Below, in pieces: positions 3,637 through 52,220 of a DNA stretch of 64,000 bases. Each line of letters opens with the position of its first letter. Positions within the stretch are counted from its first letter, which is position 1. The notes below the pieces were generated by a model. The model saw only the letters and a list, made by a program, of their open reading frames with translations, ran no database searches and was not told where the DNA came from. Source of the DNA: Bacteroidota bacterium (GTDB lineage Bacteria > Bacteroidota > Bacteroidia > NS11-12g > UBA955); assembly GCA_947496065.1 (NCBI GenBank), contig CANMBF010000010.1, positions 8,433 through 72,432 on the forward strand, in the 5' to 3' direction. The position numbers were made by a program, and so were the translations under genes.

Positions 3637-4845
3637 TTATTTTTCTTCAATATGTTTCAAAATAATTCTAAAAGTGGTGCGTTTATTAGGAATGCTTTCT
3701 TTTACATAAATATGGCCTTTGTGGTAGTTTTCGACTATGCGTTTAACCAGCGATAAGCCCAATCCCCAACCCCTTTGTTTGGTGGTGAAGCCGGGTTTGA
3801 ATACACGTTTAAACAATGCTTTTGGCATGCCTTTGCCAGTGTCCGAAATATCGATGACCACCACCTTGTTTCGTTGGCGAATGTGAAAACTGATGGTGCC
3901 TTTTCCATCCATGGCATCGATGGCATTTTTGCATAAATTTTCGATCACCCATTCGAACAATGGAATATTTAAAATAGCGGTGCAAGTTTCATTCGGTTCT
4001 TTGAAATCGTAAATCACAGTATCAGCACTTCTTATTTGCATATATTGAATAGCATTTTCTAATACTTGCGCAACATCATGTATTTTTAAAATGGGTCGTG
4101 AACCAATTTTGGAGAATCGATCGGTGATAACTTTTAAACGGTCCAAATCTTTTCGCATTTCGGTATAAGTTTCAGGATTGGCATGCGATGGATCCAATTC
4201 CATTAAATCTACCCAGGCCATTAACGAGCTCATTGGGGTGCCCAGTTGGTGAGCAGTTTCGCGTGCAAGGCCCACCCATACTTGGTTTTGCTCCGACTTG
4301 CGACTGTAACTAAAAGCAAAATAACTCACCACGATAAATAAACCCACAATGCCCAACTGATAAAAGGGATAACGCTTCAATTGTTTGAGGGTGGTTGAGT
4401 CATCGTAATAGACATATTGGTAATCGTTGTCAGCAATTTTTATTTTAATGGGTTCGTTTTTTGTTTTGATAGACTCATAATAGGCGTTCAGTGTCTTCTC
4501 GTTTTTACTCGCGCTACTATCTATATTGCGATGATTTAATATACCTGTGGCATCAGTTAAAATAACTGGAATGGTGGTATTCGACTCAATAATTTTGAGA
4601 TAAATATTCAACTCGTCAATTGAATCGGCTTTGTTAATCATTTCATAAGCCTCGGCCCACTGACTGATTTTTTTGCGTTCTTCGAGCGATAGTTTTTTGA
4701 CCATTGTATTGGTGTAATACAAGGAGAATAGGCCAATGGCAAGTGCCATTAAGAGCAGCGTAAACTTAAGGTATTGCTTTAAACTATAGTTATTAAATAG
4801 CGACATGAACATTTGATAAACATTCAAAAATAACGCAATAATCAT
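3637..4845 (-). CDS. Sensor histidine kinase
   Basis: H-box HQLGTPMSSL, and ATP-binding motifs DTGKGMP and GWGLGLS. The N-terminus has TM helices. The ORF-track start at 4956 overlaps the divergent gene, so ATG 4845 (or 4812) is preferred. Confidence 0.8.
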   Translation of the reverse strand: MIIALFLNVYQMFMSLFNNYSLKQYLKFTLLLMALAIGLFSLYYTNTMVKKLSLEERKKISQWAEAYEMINKADSIDELNIYLKIIESNTTIPVILTDATGILNHRNIDSSASKNEKTLNAYYESIKTKNEPIKIKIADNDYQYVYYDDSTTLKQLKRYPFYQLGIVGLFIVVSYFAFSYSRKSEQNQVWVGLARETAHQLGTPMSSLMAWVDLMELDPSHANPETYTEMRKDLDRLKVITDRFSKIGSRPILKIHDVAQVLENAIQYMQIRSADTVIYDFKEPNETCTAILNIPLFEWVIENLCKNAIDAMDGKGTISFHIRQRNKVVVIDISDTGKGMPKALFKRVFKPGFTTKQRGWGLGLSLVKRIVENYHKGHIYVKESIPNKRTTFRIILKHIEEK

Positions 4846-18170: not shown

Positions 18171-18300
18171 TGCAAGGCACTAGGAACTAGGAACTAGGGG
18201 AGGAGGTGCAATAGATAAATTATCTGCTGGAAAAGTTGGCACCCTTCGACTCCCGATAGCTATCGGGACAGGATGACTAAGCAGTTGGCAATGAAACCTC
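18126..18300 (+). repeat. CHU_C gene 3' end plus the flank element, a TCCCGAT hairpin and GTTGGCA words
   Basis: See 13537-13665. It contains TCCCGATAGCTATCGGGA at 18251-18268. Confidence 0.8.
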
Positions 18301-22536: not shown

Positions 22537-23062
22537 GCCACAGATTCACAGATTAAATTTGAATACATTAATACCACAGATTAAATTTTAATGCTTAATA
22601 TTTTACTCAAGTGCTTCTTGTCCCGTAGGGACAAAACATCTGTAAAGTACAACCTACCCAATGTTCAATATCCCGTAGGGATTATACTTATAACTAAGTT
22701 TTAACAAAAAGCGATAATAAGTTATCGGTCAGTCAACGAATACCACAAATGAAATCTAACGCTTAATCTTTCACAAAGCTTCCTCTTGTCCCGTAAAGAC
22801 AAAACATCTGTAAAGTGTCACCTATCCAAAGCTTCAATATCCAGTAGGGATTATACTTATAACTAAGTTTTAACAAAAAGCGATAATAAGTTATCGGTCA
22901 GTCAACGAATACCACAGATTAAATTTAACGCTTAAGTTTTCACAAAGCTTCCTCTTGTCCCGTAGGGACAAAACATCTGTAAAGTGTCACCTACTCACTG
23001 CCTCAATATCCCCTAGGGATTATACTTTTGACTAAGTATCACTAGTAAGCGTTAAAGCATGA
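22537..23062 (+). repeat. Family B element: head motif GCCACAGATTCACAGAT plus three tandem 169-bp units
   Basis: ACCACA(G/A)A unit starts at 22573, 22742 and 22911. Each unit carries TGTCCC-GTA-GGGACA and ATCCC-GTA-GGGAT hairpins 50 bp apart, plus CGATAA-TAAG-TTATCG. Confidence 0.9.
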
Positions 23063-41077: not shown

Positions 41078-41605
41078 ATGTCAGCGAGACTTAAAAATTT
41101 TGACTATTCTTCTCCTGGGGATTATTTCATCACTATCATTACGAAAAACAGAGTGCATTATTTTGGCCAAATTAAAGCTCCACCAATTGAAAATACAGAA
41201 ATTAATGAGTCGAAAATGTTGTTAAATGCTATTGGGTTAAGGGCGCACCAATGTTTACAAGAATTAAATCATCATTTTAGCAATGCCATAATTGATGAAT
41301 TTATTGTAATGCCTGACCATGTCCATTTTATTTTGAGTATAAAAAAACCAAACACATTAGATGCAATTATTCAAAAGGAATTTAAATCCAATCGATTTTC
41401 AAGACCAGTTGCAGGCTCAGTGTCTGTTATTGTTCAACAATTCAAGGCCGAAGTGAAACGGTGGTGTGGTAAAAATGGGTTTGAAGCGTTTCAATGGCAA
41501 CCAAGGTTTTACGACCGATTGATAAGAGATTATCGAGAATTTGCCAATGTAAAGAAGTATATCCAAGAGAATCCCAAAAAATGGGGTAAAAAAAAATCCA
41601 AATAA
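41078..41605 (+). CDS. IS200/IS605-type HUH/Y1 transposase homolog, RAYT-like
   Basis: HUH motif PDHVHFIL (H81-V-H83), catalytic-Tyr region WQPRFYDRLIRD (Y145), and a C-terminal YIQENPKKW. There is no partner tnpB. Confidence 0.75.
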   Translation: MSARLKNFDYSSPGDYFITIITKNRVHYFGQIKAPPIENTEINESKMLLNAIGLRAHQCLQELNHHFSNAIIDEFIVMPDHVHFILSIKKPNTLDAIIQKEFKSNRFSRPVAGSVSVIVQQFKAEVKRWCGKNGFEAFQWQPRFYDRLIRDYREFANVKKYIQENPKKWGKKKSK

Positions 41606-41611
41606 ACCGCC

Positions 41612-41741
41612 TGTCACACCAACATACGTGTTACATCATCACACTTGCTACACCATCATGCCCATTACACGATCATCTCTGTTACACCATCAAACGTGTT
41701 AAACGAGCAAACCTGTTACACCAGCATATATGATGGTGTAC
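41612..41741 (+). repeat. Seven exactly phased 17-bp direct repeats (consensus TGTTACACCATCA + 4 nt) plus a terminal inverted copy
   Basis: Unit starts at 41612, 41629, 41646, 41663, 41680, 41697 and 41714. The inverted TGATGGTGTAC at 41731-41741 pairs with unit 7. Confidence 0.9.
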
Positions 41742-42094
41742 TATCGCGCCAATCCCAAATACTCTCTCACTTTTCCCGGCAAACTATTCCTTACCAAATC
41801 ATAGCTATGATCGATCAATTCCATCACGAATGATTCTTTCAACCCATCGAGTGTCACCGTGTTCCAATGGGTTTTGTTCATGTGGTAACCATGTTTTATT
41901 TGTTCGTATTCTTCTCTTAATAATACAGCGCGCTCGGGGTCGCATTTGAGATTAATGCTTACAAAGTTATCGATGCTGCAGAGGGCGAATAATTTACCAC
42001 CTACTTTCATTACGAGGGTATCGGGACCGAAGGGGAGGTCCTCGGAAGTGCCGGGTTTGCTGAGGCAGTAGTTTCTGTAGTGTTCGATGTCCAT
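41741..42094 (-). CDS. MmcQ/YjbR-family DNA-binding protein
   Basis: MDIEHYRNYCLSKPG...PFGPDTLVMKVGGKLFA...HMNKTHWNTV is typical of the family. The ORF-track N-terminal extension is rejected. Confidence 0.75.
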   Translation of the reverse strand: MDIEHYRNYCLSKPGTSEDLPFGPDTLVMKVGGKLFALCSIDNFVSINLKCDPERAVLLREEYEQIKHGYHMNKTHWNTVTLDGLKESFVMELIDHSYDLVRNSLPGKVREYLGLAR

Positions 42095-42111
42095 GGGGAG
42101 GATTACTTTTA

Positions 42112-42119
42112 CAAACATA
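42112..42119 (-). promoter_or_regulatory. -7 box upstream of the yjbR-like gene, duplicated at 42464-42471
   Basis: The plus strand reads CAAACATA, 17 nt before ATG 42094. An identical box lies in the second copy of the tandem duplication. Confidence 0.45.
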
Positions 42120-42334
42120 GAAAGAAAACCATTAAACACAAAGCGAAGCTTCATTGATGCCATATTAAAAAAAATAAAAAAATCAATATAAGACACACAA
42201 TTTTTTTTGAGCAGTGTTTTGCGGATTGAAATTTGATTAAGGGTTTTTTAAATAGTTTTAGAATGAATGATGCTTTTTAAAAGTTCATACCGCGAAGCAG
42301 CATTGATGCCTTAAAAAAAACAATAAACAAATCA

Positions 42335-42377: not shown

Positions 42378-42629
42378 ACTTAGTTGTATTTAATTCCTAT
42401 TGAGAGGTTTGCTGAGGCAGTAGTTTCTGTAGTGTTCGATGTCCATGGGGAGGTTTACTCTTACAAACATAGAAAGAAAACCATTAAACACAAAGCGAAG
42501 CTTCATTGATGCCATATTAAAAAAAATAAAAAAATCAATATAAGAAGCATAAGTTTTTTTTTGAGGACTTTGGGTTTCAAATAACAGTTATAGGTTGAAT
42601 CAAGTGTGATAGATATAACTAAACTTTCA

Positions 42630-42705: not shown

Positions 42706-42745
42706 ACACTGAGCTTGTCCGATAGCTATCGGACGAAGTGCGACT
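42706..42745. repeat. GTCACACTGAGC...TCCGATAGCTATCGGA...CGAAG element
   Basis: Same skeleton, in reverse complement, as 18243-18285 and 48853-48890. Confidence 0.7.
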
Positions 42746-46374: not shown

Positions 46375-46782
46375 ATGAAAGTTTCAGTTATTAGAAAAGC
46401 GCATTTTAATGCGGCTCACCGCTTGCACAATCCTGCTTGGAGCGAAGAAAAAAACCAGGAAGTATTTGGGGTTTGCAACAATCCACATTACCATGGTCAC
46501 AATTACAACTTAGAGGTAAAGGTAACTGGCGAAATTGATCCTGAAACAGGTTATGTTATCGACACTAAAAAACTATCCGCGCTCATTCGCTCAGAAATTG
46601 AAGACAAATTCGATCACAGAAATTTAAATTTAGATACGCTTGAATTTAAAGACCTAAATCCTACGGCCGAGCATATCGCCATTGTAATATGGGAAAAATT
46701 AAGAGCCAAAATTGACGGTCGATTTGAATTGGGAATCCGCCTTTTCGAAACTGAAAGAAACTACGTAGAATATAATGGATAA
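46375..46782 (+). CDS. 6-pyruvoyl-tetrahydropterin synthase / QueD-family enzyme
   Basis: CNNPHYHGHNY zinc/catalytic motif and AHRLH. Start at ATG 46375 (MKVSVIRKAHF). Confidence 0.8.
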   Translation: MKVSVIRKAHFNAAHRLHNPAWSEEKNQEVFGVCNNPHYHGHNYNLEVKVTGEIDPETGYVIDTKKLSALIRSEIEDKFDHRNLNLDTLEFKDLNPTAEHIAIVIWEKLRAKIDGRFELGIRLFETERNYVEYNG

Positions 46783-47431
46783 CATACAACATACCGACGA
46801 CCATGATCACGAAATGTTTAACATCGATACACCCATGCGTGCCGATGCCTTTAAACTGAGTGATGATGAAAAGATAGATATAATTCAAAGCCATTTCAAT
46901 GCCATCATGGAGACCTTGGGTCTCGACATGACCGACGATAGTTTAAGCGGCACGCCGCGCAGGGTGGCTAAAATGTATGTGAAAGAAATGTTTTGGGGTT
47001 TAAACCCAACCAACAAACCTGAAGCCTCACACTTTAAAAATAAGTTTAAGTATTCAGAGATGTTGATCGAAAAGGATATAAATTTTTATACCAATTGCGA
47101 ACACCATTTTGTGCCTTTTTTCGGTAAAGCCCATGTTGCTTATATTCCCAATGGTAAAGTAATAGGCTTATCGAAACTTAACCGCATCGTAGAATATTTC
47201 GCAAAACGCCCGCAAGTGCAAGAACGCATGACCATGCAAATTGTAAATGAGTTAAAAAACATCTTAAAAACAGAAAATGTTGCGGTGATAATCAATGCCA
47301 AACATTTGTGTGTGGCCAGTCGCGGTATCAAAGACGATAGCAGCCATACCACAACTGCAGAGTATTGTGGTAAGTTTGAGGAAGAGTCAACACGTCAGGA
47401 ATTGCACCGTTTATTGGCGATTACAGCCTAG
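46775..47431 (+). CDS. folE: GTP cyclohydrolase I
   Basis: CEHHFVPFFGKAHVAYIP and QVQERMT motifs. Overlaps the upstream gene by 8 nt. Confidence 0.92.
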   Translation: MDNIQHTDDHDHEMFNIDTPMRADAFKLSDDEKIDIIQSHFNAIMETLGLDMTDDSLSGTPRRVAKMYVKEMFWGLNPTNKPEASHFKNKFKYSEMLIEKDINFYTNCEHHFVPFFGKAHVAYIPNGKVIGLSKLNRIVEYFAKRPQVQERMTMQIVNELKNILKTENVAVIINAKHLCVASRGIKDDSSHTTTAEYCGKFEEESTRQELHRLLAITA

Positions 47432-47434
47432 ATT

Positions 47435-47470
47435 CGTTGTAAGTTCATCATATATGATGAACTTACAACG
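47435..47470. terminator. Perfect 36-bp palindrome between convergent folE and the ACC-deaminase-family gene, possibly a bidirectional terminator
   Basis: CGTTGTAAGTTCATCAT-AT-ATGATGAACTTACAACG. It starts 4 nt after the folE stop and ends 10 nt before the opposite gene's stop. No U-tracts. Confidence 0.45.
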
Positions 47471-47480
47471 GTTACGAAAA

Positions 47481-48338
47481 TCAAACGTTCATCAATCCAC
47501 CCGTGTGCACTAACAAAATTTTATCTATTGGTTTGAAATAATTTTGTTGAATTAAATCGGCAACAGCCATCATCATTTTGCCAGTGTAGACTGCTTCAAT
47601 GGGCACGCCCGTTTCTTTTTTGAAATGTTCAATAAATTTTTTTAAATCATCATCCGATTTGGCATACTTGCCGCGGTGGTAATCGTGAAACACATGCCAA
47701 TAATTAGTGTCGTGTTTTTCTAATCGGCGATCGAGTTCGAAATTATTTTTAAGCGAGCTGATGCCTAGTATTTTTGTGTTTAATGTTTTTTTAATCACTC
47801 CTTGCACCAATCCTTCCATGGTGGTGCCGGTGCCTAAAGGGAGTATGATATAATCGTATTCCGTTTTTAGTTCATCTAATATCTCTGCACAGCCTTTTAA
47901 TGCCAAAGGGTGGTTACCGCCCTCGTCTAAAAAAAAGGCTTTGGAGTCGTGGCCAAAATATTGATTAAACAAGGCGCGTTTATCTTTGTAAGCAGTGCGC
48001 TCAACATGGTGTAAGGTCATGCCATAGTCAATGGCCAATTGCTCGTAATGGTTAGTTTTTCTCACTTCATCACCTCGAATAAAGGCCATCGTTTGGATAT
48101 TAAATGCCTTGCCAGCAAACGCAGTTGCAATCACATGGTTGCTATAGGCGCCACCAAAAGTAACAATGGTCTCTAATTGATTGGTTTTGATAAATTCTAT
48201 GGCATATTTAAGTTTTCTCCATTTATTGCCGCATACAATGGGGTGAATTAAATCGTCGCGTAGAATATCAATGTGCGGCACTTTATCAAAAGCACTGTAA
48301 TTTAAAGCTTCTACTTTGCTATCTAAAAATTCGCCCAT
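47481..48338 (-). CDS. PLP-dependent ACC deaminase / D-cysteine desulfhydrase family protein
   Basis: GNKWRKLKY lysine motif and a Trp-synthase-beta-like fold pattern. Confidence 0.7.
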   Translation of the reverse strand: MGEFLDSKVEALNYSAFDKVPHIDILRDDLIHPIVCGNKWRKLKYAIEFIKTNQLETIVTFGGAYSNHVIATAFAGKAFNIQTMAFIRGDEVRKTNHYEQLAIDYGMTLHHVERTAYKDKRALFNQYFGHDSKAFFLDEGGNHPLALKGCAEILDELKTEYDYIILPLGTGTTMEGLVQGVIKKTLNTKILGISSLKNNFELDRRLEKHDTNYWHVFHDYHRGKYAKSDDDLKKFIEHFKKETGVPIEAVYTGKMMMAVADLIQQNYFKPIDKILLVHTGGLMNV

Positions 48339-48396
48339 GTGAGGTTGCAAATCAAATACAATTCGATGAAAGATTTTTTAGAATTAAAAAAATGAA

Positions 48397-49094: not shown

Positions 49095-49317
49095 TTTTAT
49101 GAGACAGGCTAAAAGTATAATCCCTAAGGGATATATAAGCAGGGGTTAGTTTTTACTTACAGTTATTAAATCCCTACGGGATAAGGATACAATTGTTGAT
49201 TTTTGAGTTGCATAAATTAAATCCCTACTTAATGGTGTAGGCTAAAAGTTAATTTTTAGTAGTAAAATTAAATCTGAGAATTTAATGTATTCAATTCTCT
49301 TCTGTGAATCTGTGGCT
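49095..49317 (-). repeat. Family B element, inverted orientation, ending with the head motif next to the Usp gene stop
   Basis: GCTAAAAGTATAATCCCTAAGGGAT...ATCCCTACGGGAT...CTGTGAATCTGTGGC. This is the reverse complement of the 22.5-kb units. Confidence 0.85.
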
Positions 49318-51734: not shown

Positions 51735-51945
51735 AGCTAAAAGTATAATCCCTACGGGATATTGAGGCAGTGGTTAGTTTTTACTTACAGATATTATATC
51801 CCTACGGGATAAAGCGACACATTAGTTATTATTAGGTTTACATCTATTAAATCCCTAACGGATAATGTATGCAATAAGGTACTTTTATACATTAAATACA
51901 ATCTGAGAAATGATTGTATTCAATACTCTTCTGTGAATCTGTGGC
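51735..51945 (-). repeat. Family B element, inverted orientation (copy 1 of 2 upstream of 52264)
   Basis: It begins GCTAAAAGTATAATCCCTACGGGATA and ends CTGTGAATCTGTGGC. Confidence 0.85.
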
Positions 51946-52009
51946 TAATAAAGACTCAATCCTGTTTTGTTCAGATATTTATCGGCCCTTGGGTTTGTTA
52001 GTATTTAAC

Positions 52010-52220
52010 GTAGGCTAAAAGTATAATCCCTACGGGATATTAAGGCAGTGGTTAGTTTTTACTTACAGATATTAAATCCCTACGGGATATAGAAGCAGGG
52101 GTTAGTTTTTACTTACAGATATTAAATCCCTACGGTATAATATATACCATTAGTTTATTTTCAGCATTAAAATTCAATCTGAGAAATAATGTATTCAATT
52201 CTCTTCTGTGAATCTGTGGC
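52010..52220 (-). repeat. Family B element, inverted orientation (copy 2), with three 50-bp sub-repeats
   Basis: TCCCTACGG hairpin cores at 52027, 52077 and 52127. It ends CTGTGAATCTGTGGC, 43 nt from the amidase stop. Confidence 0.85.

Follow-up and report, generated by a model that had tools for sequence, protein, structure and literature searches.

How repetitive extragenic palindromes (REPs) arise and spread, and what use cells make of domesticated REP-associated tyrosine transposases (RAYTs, or TnpAREPs), are open questions, and to our knowledge RAYT biochemistry exists for the proteobacterial groups 2 and 3 only. In the E. coli REPtron, a single domesticated gene lies beside its palindromes, and a WQ...R segment of the enzyme touches the GTAG foot that acts as a guide. 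TnpAREP binds a folded single-stranded hairpin with the tetranucleotide foot as guide and cuts at CT or CA, either 5' or 3' of the hairpin, through a 5'-phosphotyrosine, with strand transfer being possible (PMC8266576). Subclass 2.4 of Quentin, Siguier, Chandler, and Fichant (2018, BMC Genomics 19:475; PMC6006769) has flanking or internal palindromes. It corresponds to group 4 of Bertels, Gallie, and Rainey (2017), is found in Cyanobacteria, Bacteroidetes, and various other phyla, and its internal palindrome is described there as predominant and not universal. Here, we analyze a relative of these systems in a 64,000-nt stretch (the window) of contig CANMBF010000010.1 from a Bacteroidota bacterium (assembly GCA_947496065.1), consisting of a RAYT-like gene, a palindrome on its 3' side, and an array of seven 17-nt units that runs into the palindrome. 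The system is of a known kind, a REPtron-type domesticated RAYT, reduced and diverged. The locus itself is probably the remnant of a REPtron core, in which a TnpAREP/RAYT gene, most similar to those of subclass 2.4 (Bertels group 4), has been domesticated and passed on vertically as a single copy, and one cognate palindrome survives 3' of the gene. It would represent a minimal, low-copy version of the least-studied subclass, with one gene and one or two palindromes.

The RAYT gene, an open reading frame (ORF) at positions 41078 to 41605 of the + strand, encodes a protein of 175 amino acids (aa). The protein matches Pfam Y1_Tnp at 28.8 bits (gathering cutoff, 23) and the NCBIfam IS200 model at 20.7 bits (cutoff, 55). 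A PDB sequence search returned one meaningful match, 4er8, the E. coli TnpAREP, at 18% identity. An AlphaFold (AF2) model built from a 36-sequence alignment had a predicted local distance difference test score (pLDDT) of 85.9 and a predicted template modeling score (pTM) of 0.80, and Foldseek ranked 4er8_A first against it (E 2.9e-7), followed by the TnpA proteins of ISDra2 and IS608. The PDHVH motif carries H81 and H83 (nt 41318-41326); H81-V-H83 is invariant across our homologue alignment (A1) and lies opposite HMH of 4er8. The predicted catalytic tyrosine is Y161 (nt 41558-41560), within KKYIQENP, which aligns with catalytic Y115 of 4er8 as part of the motif Y161-IQE-N165-P166; Y161 and N165 are conserved at 90% or above in alignment A1. 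An earlier note on this stretch, made from its letters alone, had instead placed the catalytic tyrosine in a second motif, WQPRFYDRLIRD, which contains RFYD. That assignment has to be withdrawn on the 4er8 alignment, and the RFYD tyrosine is His in many homologues.

The segment that reads the foot in E. coli is largely preserved, with W140 and Q141 (nt 41495-41500) and R150 kept as the counterparts of W94, Q95, and R104, while E. coli E100 and H101 are replaced by D146 and R147. This H-to-R change, at a GTAG-contact position, was considered as a marker of loss of the GTAG foot and rejected: the homologue of Ca. Leptofilum (L052) has R together with canonical GTAG REPs, and that of a close relative (L002) has C. 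Y-x-x-x-N-P combined with WQ is the signature given for class 2 TnpAY1 proteins in Table 1 of PMC6006769. On the Pfam and NCBIfam scores, the 4er8 match, and the Foldseek ranking, the protein belongs, by sequence and modeled fold, to the RAYT/TnpAREP class of HUH/Y1 enzymes and is not an ordinary IS200 copy, much as the earlier note had proposed. A single copy of the gene was found in the window by tblastn.

A protein search returned 103 relatives, mostly without a source name; the named ones are annotated as 'REP element-mobilizing transposase RayT', 'putative transposase', or 'transposase'. A genome scan yielded 80 loci from Bacteroidota, Ignavibacteriota, Balneolales, Cyanobacteria, Candidate Phyla Radiation (CPR) groups, and others. 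Homologous loci and contigs are labeled L001 to L094 here, with L001 to L004 being close relatives that carry an orthologous gene. The top matches are 40-50% identical, and the detectable homologues at 34-50% identity are all of the subclass 2.4 type. In a hairpin scan, zero-loop palindromes flanked the gene or sat inside it at 66 of 78 distant homologue loci. They lay within the coding sequence at 65 of these loci, 63 times as the GTAG type (T)GTAG(A/G)GAC...GTC(T/C)CTAC(A), and no more than 300 nt from the gene at 39; a few loci have one kilobases away. With the window region and its clade counted, 33 of 83 loci have a hairpin no more than 150 nt past the stop codon, and hairpins of this kind have an overall density of 0.44 per kb in these loci. 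The association with palindromes, striking at first sight, has already been published for subclass 2.4. At three of the distant loci, the whole palindrome is tandemly repeated beside the gene together with its spacer, giving long arrays: at L006 (3103-3843; 77-78 nt, 9.6 copies), at L036 from Dyadobacter jejuensis (4560-4763; 40 nt, 4.9 copies), and at L074 (4533-4956; 35-38 nt, 5 copies).

In a neighbor-joining (NJ) tree, the window gene groups with those of L001, L003, and L002/L004 on a long, derived branch, the sister of which is a Bacteroidota group of RAYTs with GTAGGGAC palindromes. The family as such has already been described as subclass 2.4 (PMC6006769). By sequence, the protein appears closest to this subclass and would lie at or near it, subclass 2.6 being compared by description only. 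Shared with subclass 2.4 are the HuH, WQ, and YIxxNP motifs, a length of ~175-200 aa, a low copy number, the range over Bacteroidota, Cyanobacteria, and scattered phyla, and a zero-loop 'double-foot' palindrome with 15-nt arms. The differences are in detail. Subclass 2.4 has NH[IFV]H and YIxNNP where the window clade has DHVH and YIQENP (WQ matches), its feet are 5' GT[AG]G and 3' C[TC]AC as against TGTTAC, TGTTGT, and TGTAAG, and the 7-unit half-palindrome array sets the window locus apart. Alignment and hairpin scanning of the window clade revealed no insert and no palindrome within the coding sequence, in contrast to 65 of the 78 distant loci. By comparison, subclass 2.6 (Bertels group 5), characterized by Bacteroidetes hosts and 'atypical secondary structures', resembles the window locus in its Bacteroidota host, in a length of ~179 aa, and in flanking structures without GT[AG]G. 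However, its 21-aa alphaC:beta4 insertion and YIH[QN]NP motif are not evident in the window protein, the sequence neighbors of which are of the 2.4 type with internal GTAG REPs. The E. coli REPtron (4er8, REP/BIME, where BIME stands for bacterial interspersed mosaic element; subclass 2.2) shares HUH, a tyrosine on the C-terminal helix, WQ...R, and the arrangement of one domesticated gene beside its palindromes. E. coli REPs, in contrast, form bulged hairpins that carry a 5' GTAG, number in the hundreds, and flank the gene on both sides as REPINs; the window shows none of this.

Descent of the gene is seen in its surroundings. L001, L002/L004, L003, and the P0002 contig all share the order pyrG, a gene for a 168-aa protein, RAYT, yjbR, and purD, and this holds even where the RAYT protein of the relative is only 68% identical, so that the accessory islet described in the earlier note cannot be upheld. 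The ratio of nonsynonymous to synonymous substitution rates (dN/dS) against the orthologues is 0.18-0.23 in pairwise comparisons, with dS up to 1.3. A ratio of about 0.2 at a shared position indicates purifying selection in vertical descent, which is expected of a domesticated RAYT and not of an insertion sequence (IS). The 168-aa neighbor has no Pfam match. On the other side lies the convergent YjbR/MmcQ-family gene (41741-42196, - strand; Pfam YjbR, 107.8 bits), with a stop codon that abuts the palindrome; it is also present in L001, L002, the P0002 contig, and L088-L093, and is a conserved neighbor and not part of the element. With these two as neighbors, no tnpB-like gene is adjacent, in line with the earlier note. 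The RAYT locus is rearrangement-prone in relatives, with DUF6364/PIN toxin-antitoxin (TA) pairs inserted at differing points. In L001, such a pair lies upstream of RAYT (683-1341), and in L002 (6603-6720) and L004 (4583-4700) the insertion of a TA pair at the palindrome/yjbR junction has left a duplicated 3' fragment of yjbR directly after the palindrome.

The terminal palindrome, with arms TGTTACACCAGCATA and TATGATGGTGTACTA, spans 41714-41743, its right end overlapping the yjbR stop codon. Within it, a hairpin stem of TACACCAGCATA and TATGATGGTGTA at 41717-41740 comprises 12 bp with one mismatch and zero loop. The CTA directly after the stem is the complement of the yjbR stop codon, and the sequence past the stem is CTATCGCGCC. 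This is the inverted terminal copy, with one mismatch and abutting the convergent stop codon, that the earlier note had described. A terminal palindrome is kept directly 3' of the orthologous gene in L001, L003, and L002/L004; L001 has two palindromes, both 3' of the gene. The palindromes of the window clade and its sister group are built alike: their arms are 15 nt long, begin with TGT, and end in CATCAyA on the inner side, and the loop is either absent or 2 nt long. The window arm at 41714 is TGTTACACCAGCATA, and the arm of L003 is TGTTACACCATCAT. In the comparison with the other arms, the window arm was taken as TGTTACACCAtCATA and set against TGTAAGTTCATCATA at 47438 (a second palindrome in the window), TGTTGTGTCATCATA in L002/L004, TGTAGGGACATCACA in L005 from the sister group, and TGTAGGGACATCATA in the metagenome contig L085. 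In place of GTAG, the foot reads TGTTAC...GTAcTA at the window locus, TGTTGT in L002, and TGTAAG at 47438.

The second palindrome of this type went unnoticed in the earlier note, which had recognized the hairpin next to RAYT. It is a perfect 36-mer at 47435-47470 (CGTTGTAAGTTCATCATA and TATGATGAACTTACAACG) with no array, and it sits between the convergent genes folE (46775-47431, + strand) and one for a pyridoxal phosphate (PLP) enzyme (47481-48350, - strand). Its arm follows the same 15-nt design, TGT...CATCATA, as the RAYT-adjacent hairpin, and its 14-mer core, CATCATATATGATG, occurs in the window solely here and, with one mismatch, at 41722-41735. No palindrome was detected 5' of the gene in a motif scan with the 13-mer TGTTACACCATCA and a hairpin scan of the window, so the earlier note was right on this point; a degenerate half-site, TGTAACTTGATACTA, at ~41041 matches the 47438 arm at 11 of 15 positions and was judged to be within chance. 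The RAYT locus thus has the 3' palindrome only and departs from the REPtron layout of cognate REPs on both sides. When metagenomes were scanned with the pattern TGTN5CATCATRTATGATGN5ACA, five stretches were returned. L085 alone was relevant and is a canonical GTAGGGAC palindrome, leaving no further window-type copies in that scan; L083, L084, L086, and L087 were set aside as chance or low-complexity matches. Window-type palindromes number 2 in 64 kb, with no others in 33 kb from L001-L004. The RAYT-adjacent hairpin is very probably the cognate REP-type element of the RAYT gene, and from comparison of the arms we read it as a diverged descendant of the family's REP.

Between gene and palindrome, Tandem Repeats Finder (TRF) delimits seven phased 17-nt units at 41610-41728 of the + strand (period 17, 7.0 copies, 69% matches, 0% indels), starting six nt past the TAA stop codon of RAYT. 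The 13-mer TGTTACACCATCA, with up to 3 mismatches, starts on the + strand at 41612, 41629, 41646, 41663, 41680, 41697, and 41714, exactly as the earlier note had listed, and is found inverted once, at 41731-41743. Another 37 matches are scattered over the 64 kb; shuffled sequence gives 22.5 matches per window, with ~0.05 expected in these 132 nt. The nature of the units is different from what the earlier note had made of them. It called the array iteron-like, but each unit is C[C/G] followed by the 15-nt left arm of the palindrome (TGTTACACCATCATA), with the last unit doubling as the left arm of the hairpin proper, so that the layout is one of seven left arms closed by a single right arm. The most conserved unit positions are C1, TGTTACA (3-9), A12, and C14-A15, and units differ pairwise at 2-8 of 17 positions. 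When 41600-41760 was folded as single strands in both orientations, no unusually stable global structure emerged (z about -0.7); the one right arm has several left arms available to it, and its best pairing is with unit 3. The array resembles head-to-tail REP clusters and BIMEs in being regularly spaced REP material beside genes (PMC3733652). However, in those clusters whole hairpins recur, often in alternating orientation, whereas here the repeats consist of one arm only, and the series ends in a single arm of the opposite kind. A gathering-threshold Rfam scan of the whole window returned no family, so no known RNA accounts for the array, and a literature search for GTAGAGACG gave primer matches only.

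The array differs in length among close relatives. L002/L004 have the palindrome only (1 copy), L003 has 3 units, the window and six metagenome contigs have 7, and in L001, which has 7.4 units, the array opens on its 5' side with a second palindrome in place of the first unit. Those six further contigs come from six separate samples and show no more than 1 substitution across the 7 units. An array that is nearly invariant among contigs, with units that have diverged from one another, must be old, and slippage is over.

Half-arm arrays recur at other homologous loci, canonical ones included. A phased extra half-arm accompanies 14 of 169 palindromes, about 11 of them in the GTAG palindrome family. 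In Fischerella thermalis (L045), five extra identical 18-nt left-arm units (TRF, 5.9 copies) precede a full palindrome 5' of the gene, and on the 3' side about 3 extra 16-nt right-arm units (TRF, 3.8 copies) come after a full palindrome. L052 has 3 left arms and then a palindrome at the stop codon. Smaller cases are found in L005, L024, L031, L037, L073, and L080, some of them within the coding sequence. The units extend from the foot to 1-3 nt beyond the apex. Periods elsewhere are 15, 16, and 18 nt, on either side of the gene or inside it, and this variation in period (15-18 nt) and placement is more easily explained by mutation than by design. A BLAST search of plasmids with the Fischerella array matched two Nostoc plasmids, in both of which the matches are ordinary full palindromes without an array. 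We found no mention of half-REP arrays in the parts consulted of Di Nocera 2013 and Quentin 2018. The half-palindrome array is apparently a small, recurrent, and undescribed feature, and it offers a concrete signature of events at RAYT hairpins.

Taken as a remnant REPtron core, the locus may have worked and decayed as follows. By homology, the 175-aa protein would be a single-strand DNA endonuclease-ligase that binds the TGTTAC-footed hairpin formed by one strand of the palindrome. It is predicted to coordinate a metal through H81, H83, and N165 and to cut near the foot with Y161, giving a 5'-phosphotyrosine link. In the window lineage, the GTAG foot would have drifted to TGTTAC, with the internal palindrome absent and nothing remaining 5' of the gene. 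The seven units would be tandem duplications of the left arm, from foot to apex, plus 2 nt, and most likely a mutational by-product of the hairpin. They could have arisen by a polymerase that stalls at the apex and slips back or misaligns, or by the enzyme cutting at the foot and the apex and rejoining the ends; the unit endpoints fit both routes. The units would since have diverged in place to leave a stable fossil array and not a working iteron, and the two convergent genes may in addition use the hairpin as a 3'-end structure. We infer both the activity on the RAYT-adjacent hairpin and the mechanism that built the array.

For the second route in particular, it is doubtful, if worth stating, that half-arm arrays are footprints of a RAYT that cuts an extruded hairpin at its foot and close to its apex, the ends then being rejoined or the DNA re-synthesized. 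If this were true, the arrays would be a natural record of TnpAREP creating and amplifying REP material, and the window, L045, and L052 would be snapshots of the same process at different ages. Should slippage alone account for the arrays, the locus would be a common case of a REPtron in decay and of local interest.

Several observations weigh against a remnant REPtron core. The score with NCBIfam REP_Tyr_transpos, at 53.9 bits, is below the equivalog cutoff of 80, and the match spans residues 68-170 only; the low score does fit a distant subclass rather than the equivalog behind that model. The hairpin lacks the GTAG or GTGG foot of characterized TnpAREPs. Both window palindromes are placed between convergent genes, a setting in which selection could favor a terminator-like hairpin in its own right. 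With two copies in 64 kb and no further window-type copies in the metagenome scan, REP-like dispersal is not shown. The gene is also dispensable in some populations, as its broken natural alleles show. A +1 G frameshift after window position 41491, upstream of WQ and Y161, is found in three ENA assemblies (L088 at ~627, L089 at ~1073, and L090 at ~1633), which are independent metagenome assemblies of GROS21-1 samples, and the 7-unit array persists there unchanged. In L091, a Logan contig, a deletion of ~41469-41731 (at 1690-1700 of the contig) joins GGTGGTGT of the gene to GATGGTGT of the right arm, removing the 3' third of RAYT, the whole array, and the left arm. Three other samples (L092-L094) have an intact allele with the same array. 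The altered foot together with natural loss-of-function alleles in the same population makes the locus a simple test bed for foot/guide recognition. Finally, in the intergenic region 64 of 67 aligned positions are identical between the window and L003, against ~80% at third codon positions; the first 33 nt past the stop codon and the right arm show no differences. Such a hint of constraint would be unexpected in a pure fossil and leaves room for a regulatory or 3'-end role, but the figure is inflated by the alignment of repeats.

The alternative that survives best is that the hairpin is a bidirectional 3'-end structure or terminator shared by RAYT and yjbR, with an unrelated minisatellite as the array and a merely coincidental RAYT gene. 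The placement of both window palindromes exactly between convergent genes would suit such a role, as would the unaltered array beside a frameshifted RAYT, and REPs generally lie downstream of genes and can affect mRNA 3' ends, as reported in PMC3733652. A consensus scan for promoters and terminators, however, called no intrinsic terminator at 41717-41740, where there is no T-tract, and predicted no sigma-70 promoter at the hairpin. Moreover, as each unit copies an arm of the hairpin itself, the array is not independent of it, which counts against an unrelated minisatellite. Coincidence is difficult to reconcile with the fact that 66 of 78 homologous genes, across phyla and in unrelated surroundings, have palindromes of like architecture beside or inside them, or with half-arm arrays that recur at homologous loci. 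As a whole, we regard this alternative as unlikely.

Less probable again, and in our view quite improbable, is an iteron-like platform, in which seven phased sites titrate or position RAYT or the YjbR/MmcQ-family DNA-binding protein and so regulate the convergent genes or local DNA processing. Exact phasing without indels over seven diverged units is what such a platform would lead one to expect, and so is position-specific conservation, strongest at C.TGTTACA, A12, and C14-A15. YjbR is a conserved neighbor, and the identity of the first 33 nt and the right arm with L003, against ~80% at third codon positions, points the same way. Nevertheless, orthologous loci have anywhere from 1 to about 7.4 copies, L002/L004 have gene and palindrome without an array, and in L001 the first unit is replaced by another palindrome. 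Known TnpAREPs bind folded single-stranded hairpins and not duplex half-sites (PMC8266576), and the arrays of 15, 16, and 18 nt at varied positions elsewhere look like mutation, not design. Plasmid iterons are initiator-bound direct repeats at an origin, next to an AT-rich unwinding region, on a replicon. The window array, in contrast, lies at a chromosomal syntenic site between pyrG and purD, its unit is a palindrome arm, and its copy number is 1-7.4.

The enzyme could instead act on other repeats, such as ATCCC-GTA-GGGAT mini-hairpins with GTAGGGA, leaving the 3' palindrome as an inactive relic; we consider this very unlikely. The retained W, Q, and R residues that contact GTAG are compatible with it, and the window contains 13 copies of GTAGGGA, the same heptamer that serves as foot in the REPs of the sister group; a single repeat family (22.6, 49.2, and 51.7-52.1 kb) provides 11 of these copies. 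Yet in the mini-hairpin GTAG falls in the loop and 3' stem and not 5' of the stem, no mini-hairpin flanks the RAYT gene, and none was found in the 33 kb from relatives L001-L004. Other hairpin families of the window were likewise not seen in the small amount of related sequence sampled.

An active IS200/IS605-type element that lost tnpB has next to no probability: despite the Pfam Y1_Tnp match, a fold resembling IS608 and ISDra2 TnpA, and the single-stranded-hairpin chemistry that such enzymes would share with the protein, these elements have Y-x-x-x-Q, are multicopy and mobile, carry subterminal hairpins at both ends and often tnpB, whereas here we find Y-x-x-x-N-P, an IS200 score far below its cutoff, one gene copy in the window, orthologues at one syntenic site with dS up to 1.3, and no left-end hairpin or tnpB.

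Other repeats were recorded near the locus and elsewhere in the window. A 155-nt direct duplication (42054-42208 and 42406-42560; 96% identity, 352 nt apart) covers the 5' end of yjbR and its upstream region and creates a second, truncated yjbR start (ORF 42390-42515); within this region, a 50-nt sub-repeat occurs three times, at 42143, 42292, and 42495. Small zero-loop palindromes, TCCCGATAG with CTATCGGGA and GTCCGATAG with CTATCGGAC, are found at 18251-18268 and 42717-42734 of the window and at 5215-5236 of L003; the second of these, at 42717-42734, lies upstream of purD and is kept in L003. The family with the (A/G)TCCC-GTA-GGGA(T/C) mini-hairpin occupies 22622-22968, 49171-49228, and 51749-52133, partly as 50-nt and 169-nt tandem units. 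At the start of the window, 167-nt tandem repeats occur at 71-374 and 651-1068 (1.8 and 2.5 copies; 84-92% matches). They form a separate family, in which each repeat has two GCTCCTCTGGAGC-type hairpins and CTCCTCTGGAG is present in 8 copies, all on the + strand.

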